Assembly (NCBI GenBank): GCA_019057385.1
Contig: JAHQJS010000003.1
Location: 83,212-147,211 of the forward strand
Direction: 5' to 3'
DNA from: Candidatus Borrarchaeum weybense
GTDB taxonomy: Archaea; Asgardarchaeota; Sifarchaeia; Borrarchaeales; Borrarchaeaceae
Length of the DNA stretch: 64,000 nt
A program made the position numbers and the translations under genes. Shown here in pieces: positions 29,693 to 57,999 of this stretch (position 1 is the first letter of the stretch; each line of letters starts with the position of its first letter). Under the pieces are notes generated by a model. The model saw nothing but the letters and a program-made list of their open reading frames with translations. It made no database searches and was not told the origin of the DNA.

Positions 29693-30700
29693 TCATAGTT
29701 CAACGTCTTTGTAATTATCACCCAGAAGTACAAAATTTGCAAGAAGAGCATTAAGTTGAATTTCCTCATTGGCACCTTCGCTAAGCCTGAACTCTGCTTC
29801 TCCTAACAAATTCATAAGTTTAACTTTCAAGTCATCATTTTTAAAGTTCATTATTTCAGAATTCATTTGCTTAAGTATATCTATACCTGATAAACCGTAT
29901 TTGATGAGTAGTTTATGAAGTTGTTCTCGGGCATCCATAAAATTATTTTTAAGTGCGAATCTTATCATTTCTTTAATTTCTTCAGGATGGACACGGCCTG
30001 TTACTTGATAAACAACATCTGCTTTGATTTCATCATCAAACGCTGCTGCCGCTTGTAGGATGTTTATACTATTTCGCATATCTCCTCTGGAACTTTCCAA
30101 AATAGCATTAATGCCTTCTTCAGTAAGATCAACACTCTCTTTTTTAGCTATATTATTTAATTGCATTTTAACATCCTCTTGAGATAATGGAGGAAATCGA
30201 AATATAGAACATCGTGATTGTATTGGTTCGATAATCTTACTTGAGTAATTACCGATTAGTACGAATCTACAAGTGCGTGTGTATTTCTCCATTGTCCTTC
30301 TAAGTGCTTGTTGCGCATCAGAAGTCATGTTATCTGCCTCATCTAGCACTAGGATTTTAAATGGTACGTCTCCAAGTCCTTTTGTTCTAGCAAAGTTTTT
30401 TACTGTTGTTCGAATGACGTCAATACCTCTGGTATCACTTGCATTCAATTCCAACAAATTGCCTTCAAAATATTCTCCAAATAAATCACGAGCCAAGCAT
30501 AATGCCGCTGTTGTTTTACCTTTTGGGAGGTTTTATTAAAATAAAGACCTTGTCCCCGGAGGACCGACAAATAAACAATGCGGCATTGATTTCGTCTTAG
30601 CAAATGAGGTTAACCTTTGTACTATGCTTTCTTGGTTTATTATTTCTTTTAGACTTTTTGGGCGATATTTTTCTACCCACATCGCATATTCTTCATACAT
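29693..30700 (-). CDS. rfcS: Replication factor C small subunit, two exons (30552-30700 and 29693-30521), 325 aa after splicing
   Basis: Exon 1: MWVEKYRPK...[10 protein letters not shown](T). Exon 2: [10 protein letters not shown]...ELNASD...LDEAD...SRC. A 30-nt insert with an in-frame TAA lies between them. Confidence 0.92.
30522..30551 (-). other. BHB intron in rfcS mRNA (30 nt)
   Basis: GGGG-AC^A-AGGT...ACCT-CCCA-AA^A-GG: two 3-nt bulges around a 4-position helix (one G-A mismatch). Excision gives CCG GGG ACA GGT AAA ACA. Confidence 0.85.
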
Positions 30701-52650: not shown

Positions 52651-53853
52651 CTAACATAAACTGAATAATAACCCTTTTCCATATTTTACCAACTCCACTT
52701 TTTTAATTGTGACGCTGTGATTTTTTCCTTTAGGATTGTCCAATAAAACTCGTTTTCCGTAACAATGAACTCCTTTCACTCTATATGTACTATTATTATA
52801 CTTGACAAGGTCATATGGTAGCAACTGGTATTTTTGTCTCCTAATAGATGGTTTGAATCCCTTTCGATTCGTCTGTAGCGAACGGTTATTGCGCCTGACT
52901 TGTATCACCTCATATGGTCTGCAGCGTTCTTGGTTGGTTCCGCCGGCAATAACGAACGCGTCATTAACATGAGATTTTTCTAAACCTAACTTATTGCGGT
53001 GGTATTTAGTAACGTATCCGTAAGTATATTCTGCATCTAATTGCTCTACTAACTTCCAACGAATGCTATTCAGACACGCGGTTGCTTTAAGTGATTTCTT
53101 TGCCTTTTTCTGTATGTGTAGGTAGCCGAACTCCTCGGCGGTCTTATCTCCTTTTTTAAGGTTACATTTCTTGCATGCAATCGTCAAATTCGACACTCTA
53201 TCAGTTCCTCCTCGACTTTTAGGGACGATATGCTCAACTTCTACGGGAACACCCGTTTTACCACAATAGGCACATGTACGCCCCCATTTGTCTAAAAGGT
53301 ATTCTTTGACTTCGTAACCCTGAAGTTCGCCCTGTTGATACTCTACACCTGTAATTTCTGGGTTCTGCATTTTGTGAGCGTCGAAATTGCCCACCTCTAC
53401 CTTTTTGAAAGGTATTGGTAGCAACTTTTCAAGCGTTTCAACTAATCGAATATGTGACTCTTGTTTATGCTGAATACTGGGAGCTAACCAGCCTTCAGGT
53501 CGTGTTCGGTTATCAAATCGTGGTGGTCGATACCCTAATCTGCCTCTACGAGTTCTACGATACATACGTTTTTCCGCTAGCTTTTTAGAAACATCCTTGC
53601 GCAAGGTCAAAGTACCACTGATGACTTCTAACTTATCGGTCTTAGCACTAAATCCGATGTTCATATATCCGAGGTCCACTCCCAGTGCAATCGGTTGCCT
53701 AGTTTCTCCGGTAGCATAGTTAAACTGAATGGTAAAAGGGCATCGCTGAACAACGTGTGCCTTGCCTTCTTTTAACAACTTCTTGCCGTTGTGTTGTGTA
53801 GTAGGCATGAGCGGTTGCCCCCTCATGTTTACCACATAGATAGGTACTCTCAA
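52651..53853 (-). CDS. iscB: RNA-guided endonuclease IscB
   Basis: PLMP domain, RuvC-I GVDLG, Arg-rich bridge helix, RuvC-II E, HNH (CAYC..EHIVPKSRGG..NL..C..CN), RuvC-III SHVNDA. Confidence 0.96.
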   Translation of the reverse strand: MRVPIYVVNMRGQPLMPTTQHNGKKLLKEGKAHVVQRCPFTIQFNYATGETRQPIALGVDLGYMNIGFSAKTDKLEVISGTLTLRKDVSKKLAEKRMYRRTRRGRLGYRPPRFDNRTRPEGWLAPSIQHKQESHIRLVETLEKLLPIPFKKVEVGNFDAHKMQNPEITGVEYQQGELQGYEVKEYLLDKWGRTCAYCGKTGVPVEVEHIVPKSRGGTDRVSNLTIACKKCNLKKGDKTAEEFGYLHIQKKAKKSLKATACLNSIRWKLVEQLDAEYTYGYVTKYHRNKLGLEKSHVNDAFVIAGGTNQERCRPYEVIQVRRNNRSLQTNRKGFKPSIRRQKYQLLPYDLVKYNNSTYRVKGVHCYGKRVLLDNPKGKNHSVTIKKVELVKYGKGLLFSLC

Positions 53854-57191: not shown

Positions 57192-57999
57192 ATGGTAGAT
57201 AAAAAGTCGGTACCACCTCTTAAACTTATATCTGATGAAGGTATCCGATCTGATGGTCGCAAATTTGATGAATTAAGACCAATGAAAATGGAGATTGGTG
57301 TGCTTAAAACGGCTGACGGATCAAGTTATGTAGAACAAGGAAGAAATAAGATTTACGCGGCTGTATATGGTCCACGAGAGTTACATCCGCGTCATTTAGC
57401 CTTACCAAATAAAGCTCGTGTAAGGTGTACTTATCGAATGGCATCTTTCTCAGTAGAAGGCATTCAATTTCTAAATAGCCTGCTGAAATGAAAGAAAAAG
57501 CCCTGCTCCAAGTAGAAGGGAACAGGAATTATCCATGGTCATTCGTGAGTCATTAGAGCCAGCAATTTTTTCCATTATGTTTCCTCGAACCGCTGTAGAT
57601 ATTTATATCGAAATTACACAAGCGGATGGAGGAACACGATGTGCTAGCATCACTGCCGCATCTTTAGCTCTTGCAGACGCAGGAGTACCACTAAAAGATT
57701 TAGTAGCAGGATGTGCTGCTGGAAAAATTGAAGGGACACTTGTTTTAGATCTCGATGACACTGAAGACAAATGTGGTGAGGCAGATCTTCCTTTAGCATT
57801 TATCCCTCGAACAGAAGAGATTACATTGCTTCAAATGGATGGATCATTTTCACCAAAAGAGTTTGAAGATGCAATGAATTTAGCTATTACTGGCTGCAAA
57901 AATATCTACGAAATGCAAAAAGAAACATTGAAGAACAAATATGCTGAGATTCGCGATGAAACTGATTCTGAGGATGATATCTCCGAAGAAGGTGATTAA
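57192..57999 (+). CDS. rrp41: Exosome catalytic subunit Rrp41, two exons (57192-57456 and 57488-57999)
   Basis: [25 protein letters not shown]|[25 protein letters not shown]. Frame is restored by removing 31 nt. Confidence 0.92.
57457..57487 (+). other. BHB intron in rrp41 mRNA (31 nt)
   Basis: TCTTTC-T-CAGT-AG^A-AGGC...GCCT-GCTG-AA^A-T-GAAAGA: 4-bp helix CAGT/GCTG, two 3-nt bulges, inner and outer stems. Confidence 0.88.

Follow-up and report, generated by a model that had tools for sequence, protein, structure and literature searches.

How a complete RFC small subunit (RFC-S) could be produced from a gene whose Walker A codons are split by an insert containing stop codons is the question raised by the rfcS locus of Candidatus Borrarchaeum weybense. 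In the window, by which we mean the whole 64,000-nucleotide stretch of DNA that was analyzed, rfcS occupies 30700-29693 of the minus strand, and its Walker A motif is interrupted by 10 extra codons (30 nt). Across the junction region the minus strand reads GGT CCT CCG GGG ACA / AGG TCT TTA TTT TAA TAA AAC CTC CCA AAA / GGT AAA ACA ACA, and deletion of the 30 nt at 30551-30522 restores GGG AC|A GGT AAA, the codons that complete GPPGTGKT. A sequence-only reading made earlier of this DNA had noticed 30 nt between GPPGT and GKT with a single in-frame TAA; the insert is there, but it carries two tandem in-frame stops, TAA TAA (30533-30538, minus strand), which fall in the loop and stem of the predicted intron. 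Translation of the unspliced mRNA would end at these codons after 54 residues. The ORFs called in the unspliced sequence encode 54 aa and 267 aa, the longer one beginning at a TTG past the GKT codons. BHB introns are normally found in archaeal tRNA and rRNA. We consider it very probable that the 30 nt at 30551-30522 are a BHB intron in the rfcS pre-mRNA, which would be removed by splicing.

The intron boundaries were set by the EndA rule, i.e. a cut after the second nucleotide of each 3-nt bulge. With these boundaries exon 1 (30552-30700, minus strand, 149 nt) extends from the ATG at 30700 to GGG AC, the last two letters being the first two bases of a Thr codon, the predicted intron occupies 30522-30551 (minus strand, 30 nt; orthologous inserts are 28, 30 or 31 nt long), and exon 2 (29693-30521, minus strand, 826 nt plus the stop codon) starts with the last base of the same Thr codon. 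That cuts placed in this way yield exactly GPPGTGKT, as had been proposed, was confirmed from the minus-strand sequence.

Following the minus strand from exon 1 into exon 2, the predicted fold starts with CC (30558-30559), the 5' strand of the outer exon helix h, which pairs with GG at 30520-30519 in exon 2. Then comes GGGG (30554-30557), the 5' strand of the central 4-bp helix H, contributed by Pro and Gly codons of exon 1, and the 5' bulge ACA (30551-30553), which is invariant in 7/7 variants of the insert and contains the predicted cut 30552/30551. The intron hairpin h' (30528-30550; stem AGGU(C)UUUAU / AUAAAACCU, loop UUUA) is followed on the intron side by CCCA (30524-30527), the 3' strand H' of the central helix, and by the 3' bulge AAA (30521-30523) with the predicted cut 30522/30521. 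The third base of this bulge opens exon 2; it is A, or U in three relatives, and Thr is encoded either way. The sequence-only reading had spoken of a relaxed BHB at the junctions, and this is what was found: in the window the helix GGGG/CCCA has three pairs and one G.A, flanked by the bulges ACA and AAA and the outer stem CC/GG; 9 bp and a single bulged C make up the inner stem, which is 7-9 bp long across the variants.

The predicted exons were compared with the NCBIfam profile NF001679 (RFC small subunit, 322 positions). Exon 1 matched positions 4-50 (E 1.9e-17) and exon 2 matched positions 51-319 (396.9 bits against a cut-off of 303). The two exons thus abut on the profile, with no position lost or added. 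The predicted product is complete for the 28-, 30- and 31-nt variants alike.

The insert is present at the same site in all five genomes of the genus, i.e. the genome containing the window and four others; the genus is the Asgard clade of Ca. Borrarchaeum yapensis and Ca. Sifarchaeum marinoarchaea. Eleven more contigs with the insert were found in ENA, JGI, NCBI and Logan assemblies, to which a scan of JGI metagenome contigs contributed only one close relative. Altogether seven sequence variants, 28, 30 or 31 nt in length, were distinguished. With 28 or 31 nt the insert puts the two exons out of frame with each other, so that in these lineages the protein cannot be obtained by read-through. 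Contigs of three DNA sequencing runs from three other studies span or enter the insert without gap or joint. DNA lacking the insert, which had been named beforehand as an observation that would speak against an intron, was not found in any such contig.

Outside the genus, rfcS is uninterrupted in 51 genomes of other Asgard families, where the frame is at least 305 aa and mostly at least 322 aa long, and the motif, where it was read, is an intact GPPGTGKT or a near variant. In the genome of the sister family (80% complete) no rfcS match was found. Three distant RFC-S calls that are truncated (P0080, P0037 and P0043) were inspected as candidates for a P-loop intron and rejected: one goes back to a miscalled start codon, one to an assembly gap, and in one the N-terminus is missing. 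The JGI contig Ga0209536_100110194 (L216, positions 380-520) encodes an RFC-S that is more distant (63% identity). Its P-loop is intact, and the usual 35 N-terminal residues with WTEKYRP are absent in frame upstream of MPHLLF; the gene could be truncated, or a further intron could lie elsewhere in it.

Conservation of the fold was followed in an alignment of the seven variants. The commonest variant has, from 5' to 3', CC, UGGG, the bulge AC|A, the intron stem-loop, CCCA, the bulge AA|A and GG, which is the hBHBh' geometry with two 3-nt bulges on opposite strands, 4 bp apart. A canonical 4-bp helix, UGGG with CCCA or CCUA, is present in 5/7 variants. The relaxed helix GGGG/CCCA is found in the window and in genome G004, where a synonymous CCG in place of CCU makes the first helix pair G.A. 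The outer stem has C-G at both pairs in 7/7 variants, yet it is just 2 bp long. Over the whole BHB 97.7% of the alignment cells are paired, as compared with 27-62% after a shift of the 3' partners by 1-3 columns; for the inner stem alone the value is 100%. At columns 15-34 four variants have G-C, two have A-U and one has G-U, and wobble changes occur at two further pairs (one G-C/G-U, one U-A/U-G). The C that is bulged in one lineage pairs with an inserted G in another. Both the length and the sequence of the loop are free to change among the relatives; the stem base is conserved. Between the window and the G001 lineage three changes were counted in the alignment over about 17 intron stem nucleotides; set against roughly one change per synonymous site, this value indicates that the stems are under selection.

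The signal of covariation as such is limited: there are few independent changes, only one pair has both of its bases altered, and the observed score is reached in 60 of 500 shuffles. In the nearest-neighbour model the strict BHB conformer is 2-4 kcal/mol less stable than the MFE fold, which shares the core helices with the BHB in a shifted register. Moreover, about 400,000 loose BHB candidates were obtained in our own scan of the genome, so that a BHB-like pattern alone is within chance expectation. Because loose BHB folds are common by chance in this A+T-rich genome, the fold alone is insufficient, and the evidence lies in the coincidence of motif, register and conservation. What chance would not be expected to produce is a motif whose register is exactly the one needed to restore the Walker A codons, and this in seven variants with three lengths.

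Several observations indicate that rfcS is a living gene. By the Nei-Gojobori method dN/dS was 0.05-0.14 for exon 1, compared with six relatives, and 0.06-0.11 for exon 2, with dS between the deepest lineages of about 0.85 and 1.2, respectively. As judged from these values, both exons are under strong purifying selection. The start and stop codons are retained in all variants. The sequence-only reading had also named a second, intact rfcS copy, combined with unspliced transcripts only, as a finding that would refute the intron; no second rfcS was found in the genome, which comprises 4.18 Mb in 8 contigs and is estimated to be 100% complete with 7% contamination. Two other clamp-loader-like genes are present, both with 28% identity: the gene of the RFC large subunit (505-aa frame) and a gene on contig C1.

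Contig C1 (L002, L116, L117) is 179 kb long with a GC content of 0.39. It has 12 tRNA genes, 11 of them called intron-free, mostly in tight clusters, and it also carries a second RtcB, split in two pieces. Its clamp-loader-like gene encodes 352 aa and lies beside polymerase-like genes and a gene for a low-complexity protein with RD repeats. The contig resembles a large virus, a plasmid or a contaminant more than it does archaeal chromosome.

The expectation that standard annotation would truncate rfcS was borne out in a collection of 5.8 billion proteins, in which the close homologues are all 228-292 aa long as opposed to about 325 aa; no full-length (about 325 aa) close homologue was found in this collection.

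The enzymes that splicing would need are encoded in the genome. Two PF01974 (EndA) genes were detected, with 99 and 77 bits (L113:1156-1779, plus strand, and L114:1423-2088, minus strand). The product of one of them (208 aa) can be aligned over its full length with the catalytic alpha subunit of Aeropyrum pernix (3p1z_B, 5.6e-42), and also with the alpha subunits of Sulfolobus tokodaii and Pyrobaculum; the loop region after GYYG and the GPGIDH segment are both included in the alignment. The product of the other gene (222 aa) is more distant and, in a single alignment, shows no His at the place of the catalytic one, which is what would be expected of a structural beta subunit. The genome is thus predicted to encode an alpha/beta EndA of the crenarchaeal type. 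RtcB is present as well (582 bits). EndAs of the alpha-beta type belong to those that cut non-canonical sites (PMC5829648), and a relaxed mRNA site such as that in rfcS would be within the range expected for this EndA.

Among the sequencing runs that contain this stretch none is on record as RNA. One run is labeled metatranscriptomic, flagged as probably DNA, and contributes three short contigs, one of which covers 30286-30489 and ends 33 nt before the intron.

Taken together, these features suggest the following course of events. In the pre-mRNA the P-loop codons of exon 1 (CC-KGGG) would find two pairing partners, CCCA at the 3' end of the intron and GG of the first Gly codon in exon 2, while the intron body would fold as a hairpin; half of the BHB would thus be supplied by the P-loop codons themselves. 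The two 3-nt bulges, 4 bp apart, would be offered to an alpha2-beta2 EndA, which would cut at 30552|30551 and 30522|30521, after the second nucleotide of each bulge. RtcB would then ligate the exons, and the intron would probably be circularized. Only the spliced mRNA would encode the complete 325-aa RFC-S with GPPGTGKT. The unspliced mRNA would lead to a 54-aa peptide ending at TAA TAA in this genome, and would be frame-shifted in relatives. Complete RFC-S is almost certainly made only after the mRNA has been cut and re-joined.

Could the insert be removed or skipped without EndA and RtcB, either by translational bypass of the T4 gene 60 type or by another RNase combined with ligation? A stable hairpin and a stop right after a conserved codon do resemble the coding gap of T4 gene 60, and a hop would tolerate insert lengths that are not multiples of 3. 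Bypass requires, however, that the take-off codon be matched by the landing codon. Take-off would be from ACA, whereas no ACN precedes GGT/GGC in any variant, the 3' end of the insert being CCC AAA A or CCC AAA T. In addition, conservation falls exactly on elements of the BHB, namely the stem base, the bulges and the 4-bp helix between exon and intron, for which a hop has no need, and the many other BHB-type inserts that the genome carries in stable RNAs and mRNAs argue against a route independent of EndA. We regard such a mechanism as unlikely. That rfcS could be a pseudogene, broken by a small palindromic insertion and replaced in clamp loading by another protein, is very unlikely. The purifying selection described above (dN/dS 0.05-0.14 over dS of up to about 1.2), the retention of the insert by all seven lineages, and the preservation of start, stop and every position of the RFC-S profile are not what a decaying gene would show, although its unspliced frame is indeed broken, the gene callers give truncated products alone, and a second clamp-loader-like gene exists on contig C1. 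That gene is only 28% identical, and it lies beside polymerase genes on a foreign-looking contig with an intron-free tRNA cluster.

The existence of ORFs of 54 aa and 267 aa in the unspliced sequence would also be compatible with two polypeptides (54 aa and about 270 aa) that assemble with each other, or the stops might be read through to give a P-loop with a 10-residue insertion. The 267-aa product, which starts at the TTG past the GKT codons, would nevertheless lack the Walker A lysine, read-through is impossible with an insert of 28 or 31 nt, and in the present genome two consecutive TAA codons would have to be decoded. In AAA+ clamp loaders a Walker A loop divided between two chains, or lengthened by 10 residues, is incompatible with ATP binding. 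Both forms of this explanation are highly improbable. As for an assembly or sequencing artefact, the source is a metagenome-assembled genome with an estimated contamination of 7%; on the other hand the insert is found in independent assemblies from at least nine samples and several studies, with lineage-specific variants, and the probability of an artefact is close to negligible.

Other kinds of insertion were considered and rejected. An intein is excluded by the length of the insert (28-31 nt), which with its stop codons or frame shift has no capacity for a Hint domain, and a group I or group II intron by the comparison of 30 nt with a catalytic core of hundreds of nucleotides. At gathering thresholds no Rfam family matched the insert.

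A second candidate was found within the window, in the exosome gene rrp41. This BHB intron of 31 nt (57457-57487, plus strand) shifts the frame, and its removal joins the two frames. Its helix is CAGU/GCUG, its bulges are AGA and AAA, its inner stem is AGGC/GCCU, and the outer stem UCUUUC/GAAAGA follows after one U.U. The insert is also present in G002 and G004, where the loop differs and, in G004, is one nucleotide longer; in G001 and G003 the exon-2 frame of rrp41 likewise ends 16-19 codons upstream. Another gene with an irregular frame is that of TBP (L209-L211; contig C6 of G000, 542671-543199, plus strand). The first repeat is intact, Pfam positions 2-36 and 34-66 of the second repeat are encoded in two frames about 28 nt apart, and the last third of the second repeat was not found in the gene. 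This pattern is consistent with several short introns.

A genome-wide scan, written in numpy, for the helix H, the bulges and the inner and outer stems returned 402,161 BHB candidates. Their removal would rescue a broken ORF in 1.46% of cases, compared with 1.43% of random decoys, i.e. there was no enrichment, and neither the folding energies nor the length histograms of the candidates showed a clean excess. The rrp41 intron, which has a U.U next to the bulge, was missed. Taking into account this miss and the lack of excess over the decoys, the scan was neither sensitive nor specific. In a search for the AGG...CCU family of stem bases the rfcS and rrp41 introns were the only convincing cases. 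No interruption was seen in the Pfam domain of secY, so that an intron of secY, if there is one, would have to be sought beyond this domain, nor was there any break within TruB_N of the cbf5 of this genome.

Outside C1, on contigs C3-C7, ARAGORN called about 20 tRNA genes, many with odd or very long introns. These few and odd calls agree with published work according to which many interrupted tRNA genes of this lineage escape standard tools. The window also contains a full-length HEARO RNA (RF02033; 53888-54126, minus strand; 121 bits), the omega-RNA of an IscB/HNH element, and the HNH motif EVEHIVPKSRGGTD is encoded just downstream of it, near 53230-53290.

What the rfcS insert provides is a well-supported candidate for a BHB intron in an essential Asgard replication gene, of a kind known from one published gene. 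The insert has stayed at one site over about one synonymous substitution per site. Automated annotation truncates or loses core genes in these genomes, as is illustrated by the close public homologues of rfcS, which are all mis-called. If rfcS has to be spliced, the replication machinery cannot be produced independently of the machinery for RNA processing.

The chances are somewhat better than even, in our estimate, that rfcS is one of tens of essential protein genes here, including those for rrp41 and TBP, that need splicing by EndA and RtcB. If so, splicing of the tRNA type would serve these close prokaryotic relatives of eukaryotes as a general, obligatory layer of mRNA maturation, and the introns would preferentially be retained where the codons are most conserved and rich in G+C, as in P-loops, since such codons can form the exon side of the BHB. 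Along with the other cases, the rfcS intron points to non-spliceosomal introns in protein genes being common in the closest prokaryotic relatives of eukaryotes, and it has implications for how genes with interruptions, and transcription separated from translation, could have been tolerated before eukaryogenesis.

The closest precedent is the cbf5 intron of Crenarchaeota (Watanabe 2002; Yokobori 2009, PMC2738675). In the literature searched, cbf5 alone has been reported to have a BHB intron in an archaeal coding sequence (PMC2738675), and a 2020 study names it as the sole BHB intron reported in an archaeal mRNA besides its own case in a 5'-UTR (PMC7714728); both agree with the statement in the sequence-only reading that BHB introns in mRNA are rare and cbf5 is the classic example. 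Like that of cbf5, the rfcS intron is a short BHB within the coding sequence of an essential gene, is presumed to be cut by an EndA of the alpha/beta type and joined by a tRNA ligase, and is lineage-restricted, with gain and loss among relatives. The two differ in that cbf5 is the gene of an RNA pseudouridine synthase in Thermoproteota, whereas rfcS encodes a replication clamp loader in Asgard archaea and has its intron inside the Walker A codons. Splicing was demonstrated experimentally for cbf5, whereas for rfcS it is deduced from the sequence.

The BHB introns of Asgard tRNA genes (Valentin-Alvarado 2024, PMC11291895; preprint 10.64898/2026.10.13.758758) have the same motif, size range and predicted enzymes as the rfcS intron. 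The lineage is intron-rich, with 2.12 intervening sequences for each tRNA gene in Borrarchaeaceae and 1.87 in Sifarchaeaceae (preprint 10.64898/2026.10.13.758758). Both of these papers (PMC11291895 and the preprint) deal with tRNA genes only and do not mention mRNA, whereas rfcS is an mRNA case. The HVO_1309 mRNA of Haloferax volcanii (PMC7714728) is, like that of rfcS, an mRNA, and it was shown to be an EndA substrate in vivo and in vitro. In contrast to rfcS, its site lies in an untranslated leader, no reading frame is interrupted, and the organism is a euryarchaeon with a homodimeric EndA.

The site of the insertion has a parallel at the protein level. The P-loop is the commonest point of intein insertion in RFC-S (Novikova 2016, PMC4760082), by which the earlier description of this motif as an intein hotspot was confirmed. 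Compared at the level of the motif, these inteins share both the host gene and the motif with the rfcS intron, and in either case the most conserved codons contain an insertion, selfish or neutral, that has to be removed precisely. Inteins, however, are removed from the protein and contain a Hint domain of hundreds of residues, whereas the rfcS insert consists of 30 nt with stop codons and would have to be removed from the RNA. These comparisons suggest that two unrelated kinds of insertion, inteins and a BHB intron, make use of the same motif in RFC-S.
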